In this document: positions 5,059 to 13,127 of the stretch, piece after piece
Layout: the number at the start of each line of letters is the position of its first letter
How positions within the stretch are numbered: position 1 is the stretch's first letter
DNA from: a virus
UHGV virus genome: UHGV-0073209
Strand: one strand, 5' to 3'
Length of the DNA stretch: 25,153 bases
Notes under the pieces: model-generated
What the model was told of the DNA's origin: nothing
Database searches by the model: none
Seen by the model: only the letters and a program-made list of their open reading frames with translations
Made by a program: the position numbers and the translations under genes

Positions 5059-6021
5059 ATGACAATGATTAAATCACCCATCAAATGGGCGGGCGGTAAA
5101 ACCCGCGTCATGCCGCAGCTGCTGAAGCATCTGCCGAAAGCCGATTGCCTGATTGAGCCGTTCGTTGGCAGCGGTACCGTGTTTATGAACACGGAATACC
5201 GCCGCTACGTCCTCTGCGATAGCAACCGCGCGCTGATCAATTTCTTTCTTGTATTGAGGGATGATACAGAGCGCCTGATAGCGGTTGCCCGCAATATATT
5301 TCGGGACGGTAACAAAGCAGATAAATATTACTCCGAGCGCGAAAAATTCAATTACATGTCATGGTATGAATCAGAAAAGGATTGCCGATCGACATTATGG
5401 GCGGCGTCCTTTTTGTACCTGAATCGCCACTGCTTCAACGGTCTTTATCGTACAAATCTGGACGGCGGTTTTAATGTGTCATTTGGCCGATATAAACAGC
5501 CATATTTCCCCGAAGCCGAAATGCGCTTATTCGCCGAAAAAGCGCGGGATACCAACGCGCTATTTCTTTGCAATGATTTTCGCACTTCTATTCCGTACAT
5601 CGCGAAGAATCGCCCGGACTCAGTAATTTACTGCGACCCCCCCTATATCCCGGCAAGCAAATCCGCCAATTTCACCGCATACGGCAAGCCGTTTACCCTG
5701 GACGATCATCGTGCTCTGGCTGCAACCCTGCTCGATGCTCATCGCCAGCACGGCACCCGCGCGGTGATATCCAACAGCGATACCCCGGAAACCCGCGAGA
5801 TTTATTCCGCTTTCAACCTCCACGCCTTCAGCGTTCGCCGTTCCGTTAGCGCCAAAAGCCGCGACATGGCCGGTGAAGTGATCGGCGTGATTCCTGATTC
5901 AGTCGACTGCTATACGCGTAGTTGCGCTAGCTGCGAAGACGTCGAGGAATGCTTAGCGCCGACAGAGATTTGGATCGGGTTTGATATGGCCGCCGGATTT
6001 GATAACGGGGAGCCTTTCTGA
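5059..6021 (+). CDS. dam: DNA adenine (N6) methyltransferase, Dam family, with a Cys-rich C-terminal extension
   Basis: IKWAGGK, EPFVGSGTVF, LYLNRHCFNGLYRTN and CDPPY align along the length with E. coli Dam. The start may be ATG 5065, which has GAGGG 7 nt upstream, rather than 5059. Confidence 0.92.
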   Translation: MTMIKSPIKWAGGKTRVMPQLLKHLPKADCLIEPFVGSGTVFMNTEYRRYVLCDSNRALINFFLVLRDDTERLIAVARNIFRDGNKADKYYSEREKFNYMSWYESEKDCRSTLWAASFLYLNRHCFNGLYRTNLDGGFNVSFGRYKQPYFPEAEMRLFAEKARDTNALFLCNDFRTSIPYIAKNRPDSVIYCDPPYIPASKSANFTAYGKPFTLDDHRALAATLLDAHRQHGTRAVISNSDTPETREIYSAFNLHAFSVRRSVSAKSRDMAGEVIGVIPDSVDCYTRSCASCEDVEECLAPTEIWIGFDMAAGFDNGEPF

Positions 6022-6204: not shown

Positions 6205-6360
6205 ATGAACGAAGAAACCAATTACCGCCGCTTCTGGCGCAATACCGTGATCTGCTGCGCGCTCTGCTCACTGCTGTTTTGGCTCCCGATGGGCTGTCTC
6301 GCCTTTCGTGTTTTCTCTGTGGTGTGGGAGGCGCTGTGGTTGCTTATTACAACGAAATAG
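6205..6360 (+). CDS. Possible small hydrophobic protein (51 aa)
   Basis: ATG 6205 with GAGGT 7 nt upstream; translation MNEETNYRRFWRNTVICCALCSLLFWLPMGCLAFRVFSVVWEALWLLITTK. Overlaps the methylase start region, so speculative. Confidence 0.25.
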   Translation: MNEETNYRRFWRNTVICCALCSLLFWLPMGCLAFRVFSVVWEALWLLITTK

Positions 6361-7391
6361 ACCCTCACGCAGCACAGCACCTGCGCAACCTTATCGACGC
6401 CGGCCATATTGCGCCGGGCGTCGTTGACACCCGTTCAATTGAGGATGTAACCCCCAATGACCTTATCGGATTCAATCAGTGCCATTTCTTCGCCGGGATC
6501 GGCGGATGGTCGCTTGCCTTACGCCGCGCAGGATGGCCAGACAGTCGCCCGGCATGGACAGCATCATGCCCATGCCAGCCTTTCAGCGCGGCAGGCAAAG
6601 GACTTGGGTTTGCTGACGAGCGGCACTTATGGCCCTCCGCACATTGGCTTGTCGGCCAGCGCCGCCCTGTCGTGGTTTTTGGCGAGCAATCTGGCAGCGC
6701 TGACGCAGCGGACTGGATCGACCTTGTACAAGCTGACGTGGAAGCCCTGGGCTATGCCTTCGGGGCGGTTGCGTTTCCGTCTGCGAGCGTCGGCGCGCCG
6801 CACCAGAGAGACCGCGCTTATTGGGTGGCCGACGCCGGCCGCGAACGAGTTCGAACCGAAGGACTTGCAAAGGCTCTTGGAGAGAAGGGAGAAATTCGCG
6901 GCCAAGCATGGAAACAACGGGTTTGGCCTGACACTAGGGCAGGCGGTGCATCTGTTTGCGGGCTGGCCGACACCGACGGCAACGGACGGGAAAGGCGGTT
7001 ATCAGGGTGGACGAATCCGCAATGGGAAGCTATCGACGGACAGGCTAGATGTGGCTGCGCAGCTTGCGGGCTGGCCGACGCCGACCACGAGCAACGACCG
7101 CTCGCCATGTCCGCAAGAGGCTATGCGGACGTATCGCGACAATGGAACAAAGATTCAGAAGCGGCTTCAGGATGTAGCTGCGTTATGCGGCCCGGCCCGG
7201 TTAACGGCTTCTGGAGAGATGCTGATTGGCTCCACGGCCGGGATGGATGGTGGAGGCCAGTTAGACCCGGATCATTCCCGCTGGCTGATGGGATTCCCGC
7301 CAGAGTGGGAAGAGTGCGCGCCTACGGAAACGCTATCAACATTGAAGCGGCGGCAGCGTTCATAAAAGCGTATATGGCGGCGGAACAATGA
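6336..7391 (+). CDS. C5-cytosine DNA methyltransferase (phage Dcm-like); conserved motifs split across two reading frames
   Basis: In the annotated frame: YYNEIDPHAAQHLRNLI, FFAGIGG (motif I), PCQPFS (motif IV), VVVFGEQ (motif VI-like), GAPHQRDRAYWVA (motif VIII), AYGNAINIEAAAAFIKAY (motif X-like). Start taken as GTG 6336, 5 nt after GGGAGG; the track ORF starts at TTG 6279. The overlapping ORF 6457-7365 carries three GWPTP motifs and RWLMGFPPEW. Confidence 0.7.
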   Translation: MVAYYNEIDPHAAQHLRNLIDAGHIAPGVVDTRSIEDVTPNDLIGFNQCHFFAGIGGWSLALRRAGWPDSRPAWTASCPCQPFSAAGKGLGFADERHLWPSAHWLVGQRRPVVVFGEQSGSADAADWIDLVQADVEALGYAFGAVAFPSASVGAPHQRDRAYWVADAGRERVRTEGLAKALGEKGEIRGQAWKQRVWPDTRAGGASVCGLADTDGNGRERRLSGWTNPQWEAIDGQARCGCAACGLADADHEQRPLAMSARGYADVSRQWNKDSEAASGCSCVMRPGPVNGFWRDADWLHGRDGWWRPVRPGSFPLADGIPARVGRVRAYGNAINIEAAAAFIKAYMAAEQ

Positions 7392-9871
7392 CCGCCGCAT
7401 CAACTGCACCTCACATCGCGCAGCCAGCTCGCGCTGACGCCACCCGGTATGATTACGAGTGGCAGAAGCCGAGACCTGCCATTTATGTTGATAAGACTCC
7501 TGCTGTTGATCTGGTTGAACTTGGTCAAGAGAAGGAGTTTTTGGCGTGGGTAAAAGTCACCCTTGCGCCGCTACCTCGCTTTATTCGCCTGCGTCTGGCT
7601 TCCCGCGTCGACAGCATTCACACCATGAAGGGCAGACACATCGCCCGCCTGGCGCTGCGCGATATCATCCGCAGGGATCTGCCGCCTATCAATATGGTTA
7701 ATGAGCAATATGCTATTGCGATGACCGATGAGGCTAAATCTCAGGCCGATACGGCATTTAAGGGGTTAAACCCGCTTTATCACACGTTTAACACCCTGCA
7801 TGGGCTGGTTGAGCGCTTTAATCGCCTGCCGGATTTCACGCCGGAAGATGTCGAGCTGCTGGCGCAGGATATCGCCATCTATATGCGGTCTGTGCTGAGT
7901 GAAGTTCACGAAACTATAGAGACGCAGAGTGATCGCAAATATGCCGGGTACCTTTACACCGAAGCGGCCATCCTCGCGCGGCTTTTCTTCCTGACGCCAC
8001 CGAGCTGGGGAAAGTATTGTCGCGGCGCGTTGTTTATTGACGAAGCTACTACCGGCATCAGCAAGATGCTGGATGATCGCTACTGGCACCGCAACCTGAA
8101 AAAGTACGCCACGCGCTGGCGCGAGCATCTGCACATTGCTTTTGGCGATGTGAAACGGGGTGCTGCACCGTATTGCAGCAAGCACCACGTTGACGAGTGG
8201 GACGCCAGGCGCAAGCGCAGCCGCGCGATCATGGCCCGCCTTGAACTGGAAGACCAGGATACCAAAGAGCGCATTTCACTTATCGAGCAGATCGATAAGA
8301 GCATATCTAACCCGGCGTTGCGCCGCGTTGAACTTATGACCCGTATCGGCGGCTTTGAGAAAGTCGCCACCGAAAGCGGCTACGCGGGTCAGTTTTTTAC
8401 CCTGACAGCGCCATCCAAATACCACGCATATACCGTATTCGGTCATCGTAATGCCAAATGGAACGGCGCCAGCCCAAGATCCACGCAGCGCTACCTTAAT
8501 CGGGTATGGCAGAAAATCCGCGCAGAGCTGGCCCGCCGCGAAATCCCGGTTTTTGGTCTGCGCGTGGCCGAGTCTCACCACGACGGTACGCCGCACTGGC
8601 ATGGCCTGCTGTTCTCTTTGCCGGAACATTCCGCCGAGCTACTGGAAGTGATGGAAGACTACGCCACCCGCGAGGACGCGGAAGAGTTACAGGGTAAGCA
8701 TGGCAACCAGCCGCGCTTTGACATGAAGCCTATCGATCATGAAATCGGCAGCGCCACCGGCTACGTGGTGAAGTACATCAGTAAGAATATTGATGGCTAT
8801 GCGCTCGATGGTGAAACTGACGACGAGAGCGGCCGGCCACTCAAAGAAACATCTAAACATGCTACTGCCTGGGCTTCATGCTGGGGTATCCGTCAGTTTC
8901 AGTTTTTAGGCGGCGCGCCGGTGTCTGTCTGGCGCGAGTTGCGCCGGTTCCGCAATCAGGAGCAGGCCGACAAGATAAACCCACTGTTTGCCGAGCTACA
9001 CCGCGCGGCCGATGCTGGCGACTGGCAGCAATACACTCAATTACAGGGGGGCGCACTGGTTGCCCGCCGCGATCTGCCGCTGCGTATCTGGTACCAGCAG
9101 AAAGACGAGCCGAATGATTACGGTGAATATCGCGACCTCATCAAAGGCCTGATGATGCCAGCCGTTCAGATCCCCCCCATTGAAACCCGCCTGCATTCCT
9201 ACTCAATCGTAAGGAAGAAACCGGAGGTTTTAGACGACTCCGGGCAGGCAGTTGACTTTGATTTTGACCTTCCGGGCGCGTCTGCGCCCTCTAGGACTCG
9301 TGTCAATAACTGTACCGAGGTTAAAAAACGAACAAATCAGCCCCCCGGATCACCGCCATTAATGACAGTGCCAGCTGAGCGGGAAGAGCCTGAACAGTTC
9401 GAGATCGGTCAGTTAACACGCGAACAGCGAAAACAGGCGTTTGAAAGCATCCATAACCACAAACCGCAGCGGCATAAATCCCCCGCCGATGAGTTTGAGG
9501 CGCTGGCGTACAGCATTACCGTCGGCGACTGTACAGAATTTGACACCCGCAGGGCAGAAAGTTATCTCAAGGCCGCCCAGGAGATTAGGCGGAGAGAACA
9601 GGTTTTATCACCGGAAATCGCCGGACTGGCGGGCTTAGTTCAGTCATGGGCGAAAGTGAAGAAGGTGCTGATCAGTAAACCGCAGGCTATACAGCTGGCG
9701 CGCGGTAATGAAGTGACGGTGCTGGATACGGTATATCGAGCGCATCCGGTTACGGGTGAGTTGATCATTGCAGGCGTTGATAAACCGTGGCGCAAAACTC
9801 TTGCAGATCATAAGGCCGGCGAGCTAGCGGCTCGCTGGAAGAAGGCAGCTAAACGGAAAAATGAGAGGTAA
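7388..9871 (+). CDS. A: Rolling-circle replication initiator (P2 gpA-like, HUH endonuclease)
   Basis: 827 aa. HUH-type motif TPHWHGLLF and paired catalytic tyrosines in GYVVKYISKN. The start overlaps the methylase stop (ATGA). Confidence 0.9.
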   Translation: MTAASTAPHIAQPARADATRYDYEWQKPRPAIYVDKTPAVDLVELGQEKEFLAWVKVTLAPLPRFIRLRLASRVDSIHTMKGRHIARLALRDIIRRDLPPINMVNEQYAIAMTDEAKSQADTAFKGLNPLYHTFNTLHGLVERFNRLPDFTPEDVELLAQDIAIYMRSVLSEVHETIETQSDRKYAGYLYTEAAILARLFFLTPPSWGKYCRGALFIDEATTGISKMLDDRYWHRNLKKYATRWREHLHIAFGDVKRGAAPYCSKHHVDEWDARRKRSRAIMARLELEDQDTKERISLIEQIDKSISNPALRRVELMTRIGGFEKVATESGYAGQFFTLTAPSKYHAYTVFGHRNAKWNGASPRSTQRYLNRVWQKIRAELARREIPVFGLRVAESHHDGTPHWHGLLFSLPEHSAELLEVMEDYATREDAEELQGKHGNQPRFDMKPIDHEIGSATGYVVKYISKNIDGYALDGETDDESGRPLKETSKHATAWASCWGIRQFQFLGGAPVSVWRELRRFRNQEQADKINPLFAELHRAADAGDWQQYTQLQGGALVARRDLPLRIWYQQKDEPNDYGEYRDLIKGLMMPAVQIPPIETRLHSYSIVRKKPEVLDDSGQAVDFDFDLPGASAPSRTRVNNCTEVKKRTNQPPGSPPLMTVPAEREEPEQFEIGQLTREQRKQAFESIHNHKPQRHKSPADEFEALAYSITVGDCTEFDTRRAESYLKAAQEIRRREQVLSPEIAGLAGLVQSWAKVKKVLISKPQAIQLARGNEVTVLDTVYRAHPVTGELIIAGVDKPWRKTLADHKAGELAARWKKAAKRKNER

Positions 9872-9873
9872 AC

Positions 9874-10431
9874 ATGAAGCATTTCAGCACTAAAGCAATC
9901 AGATCAGTTATCGCCGAAATGAACCGGCAGGACGAGAAATGGGGAGCTGACCGCGATCAACATCCGTTCGTCTGGCAAACCATTCTTAGCGGAGAGGTCG
10001 GCGAATTCAGCCAGGCAATTTTACATGATGAATTTGGAGGCCATAAATCAGGAACGGCACGCGAAGAGATGGTGCAGATCGCCGCCGTCGCTCTCCAGAT
10101 TATCGAATATTACGATCGCCGCTGCGCGCCTGCGGCGGAATCTGAACAAGTTCACCCGGCGCTCGCCATGCCGGCCATCCCGGCGGGGCGTGAAAAAATC
10201 GGCGGCTGCGACTGGCTGGACTGGAATCAGCTGTCAGCGCTCGGTCTTATTGTCCGCATTAACGCAGAAATTCTTCACCCGCTTGGACTGGCAATTTTCC
10301 GTGATCCGGCTTCCGGCATCTCAGCGGGGGCCATGATTTCGCCAGATGGTAAATGGGAGTATGCGCCTGATGTTATTGATGGGCTGCGGGTAAGACTCTC
10401 CGATCACTCAGGAAAGCACGGTCACTTTTGA
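9874..10431 (+). CDS. Hypothetical protein (185 aa); N-terminus possibly a MazG-like all-alpha NTP pyrophosphohydrolase fold
   Basis: Starts 2 nt after the gpA stop with GAGAGG upstream. MNRQDEKWGADRDQHPFVWQTILSGEVGEFSQAI resembles the MazG-like EExxE helix pattern; this call is tentative. Confidence 0.65.
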   Translation: MKHFSTKAIRSVIAEMNRQDEKWGADRDQHPFVWQTILSGEVGEFSQAILHDEFGGHKSGTAREEMVQIAAVALQIIEYYDRRCAPAAESEQVHPALAMPAIPAGREKIGGCDWLDWNQLSALGLIVRINAEILHPLGLAIFRDPASGISAGAMISPDGKWEYAPDVIDGLRVRLSDHSGKHGHF

Positions 10432-10452
10432 CCGTGCTGGCCATTCTATCGA

Positions 10453-10491
10453 GCACCGCCATTTTTGGCGGTGCTGCAGGTGTTATTTTTT
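10453..10491 (+). terminator. Possible hairpin / weak intrinsic terminator between the 185-aa ORF and the second methylase
   Basis: 8-bp stem GCACCGCC/GGCGGTGC (10453-10460 and 10467-10474) with loop ATTTTT, then a T6 run at 10486-10491. The T-tract is displaced from the stem, so non-canonical. Confidence 0.3.
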
Positions 10492-10507
10492 GGGGAGCGA
10501 GAAGGCT

Positions 10508-11203
10508 ATGAGTTATCTGGGAAGCAAAGCGGCCAGCGGTGTTTATCAAAAAATCATCGCTGAAATGCCGCCGCACGATACCTACATTGAAACGCATTTA
10601 GGCGGCGGCGCGATCATGCTGCGCAAACCTCCGGCAAAAGTGAATTGGGGGATCGATATCGACCCGCAAACCATCGAGGCGTTTAACCAGAGCAACCCTG
10701 ATTTTCTGGATAGGATGGCGGACACCCTATTTATTGATGTTGGGGATGCCGTCGAGTTCTTGTGTTGTTTCGATTACGCCTCCGCCGGCCGCGTCTTAAT
10801 TTATTCTGATCCGCCTTATCTCCATGAAACGCGCTCCAGCTCCGCGCGCTATCGGCATGAGTACACCGTTGGTGATCATTACCGCCTGCTGGGATTACTC
10901 TGCTCGATGCCGGAAAACGTGAGCGTAATCGTATCGGGGTATCCTTCTTCGGTTTATGACAACGCCCTGCCGCGCTGGCGCAGCAAGGAGTTTCAGGCCA
11001 TGACGCGCGGCGGCGTTCGTACAGAGAAAATCTGGATGAACTACCCGGAAGGCCGGGCGTATTCGCACGCGTTCGCCGGTAAAGACTACAACGATCGCTA
11101 TCGGATTAAACGAAAAGCGCAGAGATGGAAGGAAAAATTTGCAGCGTTACCACCCGCCGAGAGGTTGGCGATCATGGTGGCGCTTGGTGAGGTCGAAATT
11201 TGA
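10508..11203 (+). CDS. Second N6-adenine DNA methyltransferase, Dam/D12-class, small phage type
   Basis: N-terminal YLGSKAASGV...IETHLGGGAIML and LIYSDPPYLHETR (DPPY motif). Start placed at ATG 10508; the track ORF starts at an upstream alternative codon (10490). Confidence 0.8.
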   Translation: MSYLGSKAASGVYQKIIAEMPPHDTYIETHLGGGAIMLRKPPAKVNWGIDIDPQTIEAFNQSNPDFLDRMADTLFIDVGDAVEFLCCFDYASAGRVLIYSDPPYLHETRSSSARYRHEYTVGDHYRLLGLLCSMPENVSVIVSGYPSSVYDNALPRWRSKEFQAMTRGGVRTEKIWMNYPEGRAYSHAFAGKDYNDRYRIKRKAQRWKEKFAALPPAERLAIMVALGEVEI

Positions 11204-11321
11204 TTACGTTATTTAATGGAAGAATGATTGTTGTGTGGTTGATGTTTGCCACTAGTATTGCTATTGTCTATTCATTGTTTGATGCTTGTTTGAGTCTAAA
11301 TAGAAATCTAATGGTGAAAAT

Positions 11322-11675
11322 ATGTTAAATAATCAGGATTATGCTTTCATTAACAATACAGTAAATTCAATTAAATCAACAATGATCAGCCTTGCTAGTG
11401 AGTACGGCCCTGATTATTGTTCAGATTTTCTGATTACGTTCGAATCAATTAAAAACAATACGAGTCGGCTACGACTAACGGATGTGACCATTAACGAATA
11501 CATATCGCTTATTCGTGGTCATAACATGAACGTTCAGAGCCATCCACAAGGATTGCTGGTACAAGCTCACGTTAGCTCGATTTTGCTGGCTCCGAATGAT
11601 GCTGTGGCCCTATCGAATTCTCTCCAGATGTTTCGTGGCCGCGCAGCCCTCAACGGCGATTACGAGAACATCTAA
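11322..11675 (+). CDS. Hypothetical protein (117 aa) encoded in an AT-rich island
   Basis: A 117-codon ORF in DNA of roughly one-third GC, where chance ORFs are unlikely. GGTGA Shine-Dalgarno-like upstream; AT-rich 118-bp upstream region. No recognisable domain. Confidence 0.6.
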   Translation: MLNNQDYAFINNTVNSIKSTMISLASEYGPDYCSDFLITFESIKNNTSRLRLTDVTINEYISLIRGHNMNVQSHPQGLLVQAHVSSILLAPNDAVALSNSLQMFRGRAALNGDYENI

Positions 11676-11708
11676 GCACGAAACGAAATGGTTTTCTATC
11701 GCGCAAAC

Positions 11709-11728
11709 TTGCACAAATTTGCACAATT
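11709..11728. promoter_or_regulatory. Tandem direct repeat TTGCACAA(A/T)T x2 near cos; possible terminase or regulator binding site
   Basis: TTGCACAAAT then TTGCACAATT, adjacent, in the non-coding block between the cargo region and portal gene. Confidence 0.3.
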
Positions 11729-11820
11729 TTTGAAACGATGTTTTTGCTATGCAGCGCCAGCACTGGCGGGGCATGGGCAGTCTGCGCAGAGTGCACAAAA
11801 AGAGGCATGTTTAGCGCGCA

Positions 11821-11840
11821 GGCGAGGCGGGGGAGCAAGC
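11821..11840. other. Putative cos site (cohesive-end region)
   Basis: GGCGAGGCGGGGGAGCAAGC; its first 12 nt match the P2 cohesive-end sequence as I recall it (GGCGAGGCGGGG...). Flanked by GCGCGC on both sides and located between the hotspot and Q, where cos lies in P2. Confidence 0.5.
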
Positions 11841-12074
11841 GCGCGCTTTGGGGGTAGGGAAGGGGTCGGTATACCTCGCCAAAAGCTGCCTGCCGGGCGC
11901 GCACTTTCGCGGTGCATCCGGCGAGCGCGTAGGAAAAAGCCCGCCAGAGTGGCGCTGGCTGCGTCTGGTTGGTGATATGACATTGAAGTGTTGCAGGTTG
12001 GCCGACATGGCCAGGAATGGTGATGCTGCAGGTCGGTACTGCACCGCCGGGAATGGCAGTGCGGTACCTTCAGA

Positions 12075-13127
12075 TCACTTCGGGGTTTCCAGCAGGGCGT
12101 AAGGGTTGAAGCGGATCACCTCTTCACCGAGCCAGTCGTTAACATGCTTCATCGCTTCCATGACCGGTGTCAGTTCGTTGACCGCGAATACCCTGGCTGC
12201 CTTCTCGACGTCGCCGAATGATCCGTTGCCTTCAGGTATGGCGCCCATCAGTTGCGGCGGCACGCGGTGAGCCGCAAGCATGTCGTCACGCGTGGAGGAC
12301 TTCACACCCACAAACTCATCCTTTGCCGATATCTGGCTGAAGGGCAGGATCTGCACGGCATCTTTGCCGACACCGGGCGCACTCAGCAGGATGTTTTTAA
12401 ATGCCCCGCCGCGCCGGGTATCGGTCAATGTCTTCTTCAGGTTCTCCAGGCTTTCCCCGTCAGCCACTGCGCTGCTGACGTAGACAATACAGCCGGCATG
12501 CGACCCGTTGTCGTAGTAGAGCTTGCGGAACTTGTCGGCGGAGTGCGCCAGGTTCGCCGACAGCAGGCCGGCGAAATACTCCGGCATGCCGTAGATCTCC
12601 TGGTGAATATCCGGGTTGATCACATGGCACACCGAACCGGTTTCGAACGGGTGGTCATCAAGGCCAGACTGAATAAACCAGTAGGTGTCTAGGTCGGAAC
12701 CGCGCCGGGTGTACTTCGCCAGCGAGTTACGAAAGCCCATTGGCCCATTCAGGCGGTTGCGCCGCATCTCAAGGTACGCATTGCCGAACACAAACCAGTC
12801 GAGCGCAAAGGCGCTGAACGCCTGGCGCGATAACAGTTTGTGCGGGATAAAGCATCCGGCCAGCACGTTACGCTTGAAGAACAGCGCCGACTGGTGCCAG
12901 CTCGCATAGCCGAACTGGCGGGCCAGTCCGTACCAGCTGATCGGCGTCTCGTAGTACCGGCCATTATTGGCGCAGTACATGTTATCCAGCAGGTCATGAG
13001 CACCGGTCACCGGCCACGGGCCGTCGAACGTGAACGCGCTCAGGCCGGGGGCCGACTTCAGCGCGTCGGCGAGGTCGGCTTGCTCTCTGGCATACTGCCT
13101 GCCGCGCGGGGATTTTCGTCTGCTCAT
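12075..13127 (-). CDS. Q: Portal protein (P2 gpQ-like)
   Basis: 350-aa ORF divergent from the capsid operon. Its start overlaps the terminase stop (ATGA at 13125-13129), the Q-P arrangement of P2. Confidence 0.88.
   Translation of the reverse strand: MSRRKSPRGRQYAREQADLADALKSAPGLSAFTFDGPWPVTGAHDLLDNMYCANNGRYYETPISWYGLARQFGYASWHQSALFFKRNVLAGCFIPHKLLSRQAFSAFALDWFVFGNAYLEMRRNRLNGPMGFRNSLAKYTRRGSDLDTYWFIQSGLDDHPFETGSVCHVINPDIHQEIYGMPEYFAGLLSANLAHSADKFRKLYYDNGSHAGCIVYVSSAVADGESLENLKKTLTDTRRGGAFKNILLSAPGVGKDAVQILPFSQISAKDEFVGVKSSTRDDMLAAHRVPPQLMGAIPEGNGSFGDVEKAARVFAVNELTPVMEAMKHVNDWLGEEVIRFNPYALLETPK

Follow-up and report, generated by a model that had tools for sequence, protein, structure and literature searches.

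The interval between the replication gene gpA and the cos site of a P2-like prophage, analyzed here in a 25,153-nucleotide (nt) stretch of the virus genome UHGV-0073209 (the window), is most probably, at a probability of about 70%, a mosaic of three independent units that do not make up a single system. These units are a DNA methylase that belongs to the phage backbone, an optional early cassette encoding a 185-amino acid (aa) protein, and orf117, a gene for a 117-aa protein carried as variable cargo. The portal protein encoded in the window is 98–99% identical to portals of Klebsiella prophages, and the interval is the gpA–cos accessory region of a Klebsiella-type P2-like (Peduoviridae-type) prophage. 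An initial annotation of the same DNA had placed three genes between the replication gene and the cos/portal region; their coordinates and anchors were confirmed, with all three open reading frames (ORFs), namely those of the 185-aa protein (9,874–10,431), the methylase (10,508–11,203), and orf117 (11,322–11,675), being on the plus strand.

Our survey by tblastn and blastn covered 44 species-level loci, each with a gene for a relative of the portal protein; 38 of these loci have both anchors. Two separate pairs of homology breakpoints were resolved by blastn, the first (9,858–9,881 and 10,402–10,434) bracketing the 185-aa gene and the second (11,186–11,196 and 11,690–11,711) bracketing orf117 together with its upstream spacer. 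A repeat search found only short, chance-level direct or inverted repeats as possible cassette borders, save for two hairpins at 10,416–10,474 that are described below. The methylase adjoins gpA in approximately 22 of the 38 anchored loci, with 51–95% identity by tblastn, and was found in Klebsiella, Yokenella, Pectobacterium, Brenneria, Serratia, Symbiopectobacterium, Citrobacter, Kosakonia, Mixta, Enterobacter, Izhakiella, and Erwinia; because of this frequent position next to gpA, it is regarded as a part of the lineage backbone. The two breakpoint pairs and the widespread presence of the methylase together indicate that the interval consists of a conserved methylase between a proximal and a distal variable site.

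The flanking genes are distributed quite differently. The MazG-like N-terminal domain of the 185-aa protein was found in 2 of the species-level loci and its C-terminal DUF7415 in 4, the full two-domain protein being limited to an Escherichia coli prophage and Citrobacter youngae and DUF7415 having a different N terminus in the two further loci, whereas orf117 was present in none of the 44 by tblastn. Thus, on comparison of the slot across related prophages, the content of the cassettes on both sides varies, and the methylase does not show this variation. The possibility raised in the initial annotation, that all three genes are conserved core genes at this position, therefore holds in part for the methylase and does not hold for the other two. 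In Klebsiella contigs encoding the 185-aa protein or a 176-aa version, the order is fixed as gpA, that gene 2 nt downstream, and the methylase, whereas the gene after the methylase varies, encoding 84, 135, 138, or 117 aa. The loci that lack the methylase have large low-GC genes instead (400–920 aa, with a GC fraction of 0.33–0.46), which is the classical hotspot picture. The gpA–gpQ interval is a documented hotspot for anti-phage cargo in P2-like phages (Rousset et al, 2022; PMC9122126), and the assignment of the slot to the variable P2 tin/old position in the initial annotation is upheld by both its position and the variation of its content among relatives.

orf117 as cargo of the distal site

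The distal cassette (11,204–11,700, plus strand) is an AT-rich variable cargo slot, as defined by the homology breakpoints and by a GC fraction of 0.36–0.42. The GC fraction of orf117 itself is 0.415 (0.43 at third codon positions) compared with 0.55 for the window, and 400-nt windows around it fall to 0.36, so that the AT-rich 117-aa ORF was correctly noted as such. Comparison with a 97%-identical copy (locus L051) gave a ratio of nonsynonymous to synonymous substitution rates (dN/dS) of 0.12, and with a 79%-identical copy (locus L047) the synonymous sites were saturated (proportion of differences, 0.79) at a nonsynonymous proportion of 0.115, indicating that orf117 is a real gene under purifying selection. 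A hydrophobic 42-aa ORF that overlaps its start (11,200–11,328) was considered as a partner and rejected, as it is interrupted by a stop codon and indels in L047 and frameshifted in L051; hence, the block is a single-gene cassette. With this ORF disrupted in relatives and orf117 having no family match, the cassette does not qualify as a type II toxin–antitoxin module. Upstream of orf117, a promoter-like TTGATG-17 nt-TATTGT pair (11,239–11,267, plus strand) has both hexamers conserved in L047 with a diverged spacer sequence, which weakly suggests that orf117 may have a promoter of its own.

The structure model of the orf117 product showed a confident winged helix-turn-helix (HTH) between long N-terminal and C-terminal helices, and it was compared with the winged-helix domains of Stn1, RepE/RepA, JetB/ScpB, and CtsR. 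The invariant residues of the family, K44, R49, R51, and Y60, surround the HTH, and the C-terminal end has R105, R107, and a conserved NGDxxN tail. Neither orf117 nor any of the ten family members matched a model in Pfam, PHROGs, NCBIfam, or PADLOC, and tblastn found no match to orf117 in 50,697 phage records or 72,556 plasmid records. The family is represented by three clusters in a collection of 5.8 billion proteins and by ten matches among 1.84 billion representative proteins; eight of the ten are 92–118 aa in length, and seven of these eight are distant relatives with 29–40% identity.

The orf117 relatives of known context are all on mobile elements. They occur in the methylase-to-cos slot of three P2-like lineages, in one of them at only 40% identity, on a contig resembling an integrative and conjugative element with TraG, an integrase, and an N6/N4 methylase, and in a chromosomal island. 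Another relative (P0230, 39% identity) is located between the relaxase and a PF03090 replicase on mobilizable plasmids of approximately 5 kb (L054–L056, contigs of 4.0–5.3 kb), and it has no counterpart in PLSDB. These plasmids encode a MobC/NikA-like protein, the relaxase, and the replicase, plus a 93-aa beta-helix protein and a 135-aa ORF.

The distal site, from the methylase to cos, holds in relatives Doc/Fic with a Phd-like partner, YafO, ParE with an HTH antitoxin, HicB, SoFic (PADLOC, 8e-41), a Tae4 amidase, DUF4760, and several unknown single genes, toxin–antitoxin modules being the commonest cargo. In Klebsiella phage 3LV2017, for example, a 92-aa toxin of the ParE family and a 124-aa antitoxin-like protein of the HTH_3 type are encoded at 6,833–7,571 on the minus strand of its locus (L002); the record of this phage has no annotation for the 1.4-kb stretch from the methylase to the portal gene, including the ParE and HTH_3 genes. 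Judging from this range of toxin–antitoxin modules, SoFic, and single genes, the distal site is the true counterpart of the P2 tin/old cargo position, and, of the three genes of the interval, only orf117 occupies a slot in which relatives hold defense or toxin–antitoxin cargo.

The likeliest action of the orf117 product is nonenzymatic, by binding to a partner protein or to nucleic acid, and it probably serves competition between mobile elements, either in exclusion or in anti-defense. The main rival to this interpretation is a housekeeping role for orf117 on mobile elements, as a regulator or as an accessory to replication, for example in winged-helix control of the neighboring replication or methylase genes. 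Its winged helix resembles the RepE/RepA initiator domains, CtsR, and PurR, its plasmid relative is directly upstream of the replicase gene, and in the three P2-like lineages it is downstream of the replication and methylase genes even where identity is down to 40%. However, the absence of orf117 from the 44 loci and from all phage and plasmid records searched indicates that no essential phage or plasmid function depends on it; furthermore, its slot is filled in relatives by toxin–antitoxin and defense genes, and its low GC marks recent acquisition. We therefore consider the regulatory role to be unlikely, and a role of orf117 in competition to be the better explanation.

The 185-aa protein of the proximal site

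The proximal exchangeable cassette (approximately 9,860–10,402) carries the gene for the 185-aa two-domain protein (9,874–10,431, plus strand), the ATG of which is located 2 nt past the gpA stop codon, with a GAGAGG Shine–Dalgarno sequence within the final gpA codons. In relatives, the site from gpA to the methylase holds a 116-aa protein with a ClpX-type zinc finger, a protein with DUF7415 behind another N terminus, HicB, or a 71-aa ORF, or it is empty. The 185-aa protein is laid out as a MazG-like all-alpha domain (residues 1–85), a disordered linker (88–100), and DUF7415 (approximately 101–185), and PHROG and Pfam matches divide it in the same manner into an N-terminal unit (residues 3–84) and DUF7415 (PF24187, residues 115–155), the latter with 41.3 bits against a gathering threshold of 27. 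The N-terminal domain is predicted to adopt the all-alpha helical-bundle fold of MazG-like proteins. When the profile of its stand-alone relatives was compared with PDB sequences, the only matches were Sso3215 (1vmg), 5ie9, and YpjD (2gta), with E values of 0.1–0.5; all three are of the MazG type and were aligned over the LxEExGEL helix, and the PDB entries name 5ie9 a nucleotide pyrophosphohydrolase and 2gta a putative pyrophosphatase. No curated MazG model in Pfam or NCBIfam matched the 185-aa protein, PF03819 appeared only at an E value of 0.084 in 3 of 15 relatives, and PADLOC gave no match. The MazG-like N terminus noted earlier is thus supported by the fold and by weak profile matches, but not by a curated model.

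The first acidic motif, E41xxE44, is conserved, and the second is E65xxQ68, with Q68 invariant, in place of the canonical ExxD. E15, E41, E44, D52, and E65 are invariant or nearly so, and E78 and D81 are also conserved; from these residues, catalytic competence of the MazG-like domain is plausible. The family of the 185-aa protein comprises more than 100 clusters with intact length. Its N-terminal domain shares 70–75% identity with proteins from CBB-like jumbo phages that combine it with DUF7768 and 42–47% identity with Vibrio and T5-like phage proteins, and it also occurs alone (approximately 100 aa) or fused to DUF551. In two loci, L005 (8,220–8,639) and L033 (9,176–9,598), homology at the same genomic position is limited to the DUF7415 half and breaks off at the linker. 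Domain shuffling at the linker was also seen more widely, with DUF7415 behind unrelated N termini and the MazG-like half with other partners (also P0062 and P0074/P0087).

By analogy with MazG-type enzymes, the likeliest action of the 185-aa protein would be hydrolysis of a nucleotide, which may be a noncanonical (d)NTP, an alarmone, or a signaling nucleotide. The phage MazG-like protein Atd1 is reported to deplete (p)ppGpp and to blunt TIR-based abortive infection (bioRxiv 10.1101/2022.06.09.495361), and MazG-type enzymes with DUF551 are mentioned in connection with MazZ (PMC10834534); these parallels would hold at the superfamily level only. A close relationship to Atd1 was unsupported, as no record bearing the name of its source phage, PcCB7V, was among the tblastn matches. 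No gene of the Z-base pathway, such as PurZ, was recognized in the window, in which no search aimed at one was made, and no MazG entry appears in the parts of the supplements of Rousset et al (2022) that were consulted. Compared with the characterized MazG-like proteins taken as a reference, AF_0060 (2p06), YpjD (2gta), phage Atd1, and MazZ, the 185-aa protein differs in having no significant sequence similarity, an ExxQ second motif, and the extra C-terminal DUF7415.

It is also conceivable that the MazG-like domain is a noncatalytic scaffold and that the 185-aa protein acts via DUF7415, for example as a protein-binding factor, in the manner of other phage proteins with C-terminal modules of the DUF551 or DUF7415 type. 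The invariant Q68 at the position of the canonical ExxD aspartate, the lack of an above-threshold MazG match in Pfam or NCBIfam, the recurrence of DUF7415 at this position with unrelated N termini in L005 and L033, and the precedent of DUF551, which is described as portable among Ea22 variants of the lambda family and YfdS (PMC10834534), would all be in line with this. The near-invariance of E15, E41, E44, D52, and E65, however, suggests that a metal site is retained, and the occurrence of the N-terminal domain as a stand-alone protein of approximately 100 aa or in fusion with DUF7768 argues for autonomous activity, so that we regard the scaffold role as rather improbable and nucleotide hydrolysis as the preferred reading.

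The position of the 185-aa gene 2 nt past gpA, with its Shine–Dalgarno sequence inside gpA, suggests that it is probably coexpressed with the replication functions, which would fit a role in the lytic cycle better than a defense expressed by the lysogen. The methylase, like the 185-aa gene, shares its strand with the early replication operon, so that these two, if they are conflict genes at all, are more likely to serve counter-defense in the lytic cycle than to provide a defense expressed by the lysogen.

The orphan methylase and the interval as a whole

The reading frame of the methylase, the conserved core of the interval, extends from a TTG at 10,490 to 11,203 (237 aa), and the ATG at 10,508 (231 aa) is the likelier start because 231 aa fits the length of its homologues (230–233 aa). 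In the family alignment, the YLGSK, HLGGGA, and DPPY (YSDPPY) motifs and the C-terminal half are invariant, and residues 42–95 are hypervariable. The scores are under the curated cut-offs (PF02086, 18.9 bits vs. 22; TIGR00571, 32.6 vs. 114.85), and some close homologues carry a precomputed PF02086 match. PADLOC returned generic models (MTase_II, 1e-23; oMTase) and a weak match to PD-Lambda-5_B, PHROGs returned phrog_56 (1.5e-36), and the only match of the methylase profile among PDB sequences was DpnM (2dpm; E value of 1.8e-4). In the alignment with DpnM, residues 60–71 of the methylase span residues 72–168 of DpnM, leaving approximately 85 DpnM residues without a counterpart, a segment which, going by the structures of Dam, T4 Dam, and DpnM, we take to be the target-recognition domain. 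Compared with the Dam family (E. coli Dam, T4 Dam, and DpnM), the methylase shares the N-terminal YxGSK motif, the GxG motif for S-adenosylmethionine, and DPPY with the region following it, and differs in the missing recognition segment, the subthreshold scores, the hypervariable stretch, and the lack of any partner endonuclease found. On these sequence features, it is classed as a Dam/D12-related orphan N6-adenine methyltransferase without a Dam-type recognition domain, and the Dam-class assignment in the initial annotation thus stands at the superfamily level but not at the level of the Pfam and TIGR cut-offs or of the recognition domain. Because that domain is missing, the target cannot be assumed to be GATC. 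M.EcoGII was rejected as a relative, as it is of the beta class (PMC7544214).

There are 4,496 homologues of the methylase, named DNA adenine methylase in their source, and among isolated P2-like phages it is found in Klebsiella 3LV2017 and its relatives and in Salmonella SEN4, SEN5, SW3, SW5, and SI7. The RefSeq record of 3LV2017 annotates only the first 576 nt of the homologue. No nuclease partner was found, and two more methylase genes are located upstream of gpA. The simplest role would be self-protection from restriction, and the methylase is probably an anti-restriction factor that protects phage DNA.

The spacer before the methylase contains the two hairpins on the plus strand (10,416–10,474; repeat search and blastn breakpoints), which are near-perfect GC-rich palindromes, GCACGGTCA-CTTT-TGACCGTGC at 10,416–10,437 and GCACCGCCA-TTTT-TGGCGGTGC at 10,453–10,474. 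Both lie within the backbone that resumes at approximately 10,402–10,434 and are retained by relatives without the 185-aa cassette, and weaker copies are present at 11,751–11,772 and 12,041–12,062, near cos and the end of the portal gene. The hairpins could be a terminator or attenuator, or a site of recombination or protein binding.

The analyses above establish the gene models, the boundaries and distribution of the cassettes, and the folds and motifs; the timing of expression and the biochemical activities of the three units we infer as follows. The methylase, inherited with the phage backbone in many genera, would methylate replicating phage DNA, so that the progeny may escape restriction, alongside the Dam-like and Dcm-like methylases encoded upstream of gpA. 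The 185-aa gene is an optional cassette that is probably expressed during lytic replication, and its product may hydrolyze a nucleotide. The AT-rich block (11,204–11,700) is the exchangeable slot, occupied here by the single gene orf117 with a promoter-like signal of its own, and the orf117 product, through binding to nucleic acid or to a partner, would take part in the competition among mobile elements.

Several findings weigh against parts of this scheme. If the hairpins terminate transcription, the assignment of the genes to one early operon is undermined. The methylase homologue of 3LV2017 (L002, 6,105–6,795) was detected by tblastn as two pieces, broken at residue 182, the same two-piece form is present in 11 Kp48xx phage records, and the gene is thus frameshifted or split, and hence dispensable, in this group. 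The DUF7415 half of the 185-aa structure model is of low confidence (pLDDT score of 57–73). For orf117, no known family, partner, or phenotype backs a role in conflict; the protein is mildly acidic (isoelectric point of 5.4), which is unusual for a DNA binder; the relative beside the replicase on small plasmids also fits a replication or regulatory role; and the promoter-like pair, with 8 of 12 matches, is below the reporting threshold and not significant alone.

A more far-reaching joint reading, which we put forward tentatively and consider doubtful as a whole, is that orf117 founds a new family of winged-helix single-gene weapons, which would exclude competitors or neutralize host defense by binding nucleic acid while the C-terminal tail engages a partner, and that, independently, the methylase would give broad anti-restriction cover through relaxed specificity and the MazG-like/DUF7415 protein would act in counter-defense by degrading nucleotides.

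The initial annotation had instead expected a defense or counter-defense module among the three genes and had singled out the pairing of a pyrophosphohydrolase with a methylase. A single new system made up of all three genes, or of these two, could be suspected from their location in the gpA–gpQ hotspot on one strand at close spacing, and from the constant position of the 185-aa gene beside the methylase in the Klebsiella contigs. However, the two genes are not coinherited, as the MazG-like domain accompanies the methylase in only 2 of the approximately 22 methylase-bearing species-level loci and the methylase is without it in the other approximately 20; jumbo, T5-like, and Vibrio phages carry the MazG-like domain in the absence of this methylase; the breakpoints around each cassette are clean and separate; and PADLOC gave only the generic methyltransferase models and the weak PD-Lambda-5_B match, with nothing for the 185-aa and 117-aa proteins. 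The distribution largely refutes a single system, which is highly improbable; what remains of the expected module is a hotspot with variable content, whose three genes form no module and match no dedicated defense model. That the whole interval is ordinary backbone, with the 185-aa and 117-aa ORFs as lineage-specific fillers or decaying remnants, is scarcely tenable, since, against the wide conservation of the methylase and the lack of a match to a dedicated defense-system model among the three, orf117 has a dN/dS of 0.12, the 185-aa family has its many intact-length clusters, and both cassettes show presence, absence, and replacement at fixed breakpoints.

Neighboring features and comparison with the P2 hotspot

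The left anchor of the interval is the gpA replication endonuclease gene (7,388–9,871, plus strand; PF05840, 2e-99; phrog_91, 2e-241). The right anchor is the cos-like site GGCGAGGCGGGG (11,821–11,839, plus strand), which occurs exactly once in the window and which we take to resemble the P2 cohesive end; the cos-like 12-mer is at an equal distance from the portal gene in 28 related loci. The portal gene itself, a homologue of gpQ, is at 12,075–13,127 on the minus strand (PF04860, 1e-14). In the early region, there are three DNA methyltransferase genes, encoding a 320-aa full-length Dam (5,059–6,021), a Dcm-like enzyme (6,279–7,391), and the compact Dam derivative of the interval (10,508–11,203), a heavy investment in DNA modification for a phage of approximately 33 kb.

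The C5-cytosine methyltransferase gene (6,279–7,391, plus strand) harbors another long ORF, nested in the +1 frame (6,457–7,365), which is about 230–300 aa in length across loci and was also noted in L001, L003, L005, L013, L020, L023, L028, L033, L047, L061 (from phage Seifer), and L062 (from phage K1G). The outer frame has motifs I (FAGIGG), IV (PCQ), and VIII and the GNAI motif X. GWPTP motifs recur in the inner frame, the C terminus of which has a WLMGFPPEW resembling motif IX of C5-methylases. Both frames are open with their motifs kept in all 10 homologous loci checked, and the wobble periodicity and codon-position variability shift from the outer to the inner frame near 6,800–6,900. Each frame has distant tblastn homologues in about 190–220 phage records, with overlapping coordinates in the records compared, such as that of K1G, in which the inner ORF is annotated as "Mte8-like protein" inside a "C-specific methylase"; the ORF is also open in Klebsiella phage Seifer. 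The nested ORF may reflect genuine dual coding, a methylase that is split or has an alternative subunit, or a product of frameshifting. The literature searched contained no description of it.

The gpA–cos hotspot is a hunting ground for new immune systems, and in the Klebsiella/Enterobacterales branch it consists of two sites, a proximal one with small genes of the early operon and a distal one with toxin–antitoxin modules, SoFic, and unknown single genes. With a conserved methylase inside the hotspot, the methylase would be wrongly scored as a defense candidate if every gene from gpA to gpQ were counted as cargo. The leads provided by the interval are a compact Dam-derived methylase without a recognition domain, a domain-shuffling MazG-like protein, and a very rare winged-helix family of mobile elements; these leads are unsurprising in kind, and, apart from one new small family, that of orf117, the hotspot is ordinary. 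Compared with the P2 tin/old locus, it has the same position between gene A and cos/portal and a likewise variable content, with SoFic and toxin–antitoxin genes at the distal site of related loci. It differs from that locus in that PADLOC recognized no defense system and no homologue of tin or old was found here, and in that a conserved methylase splits the hotspot into a proximal and a distal site, the distal cargo in this prophage being a single gene of 117 aa.

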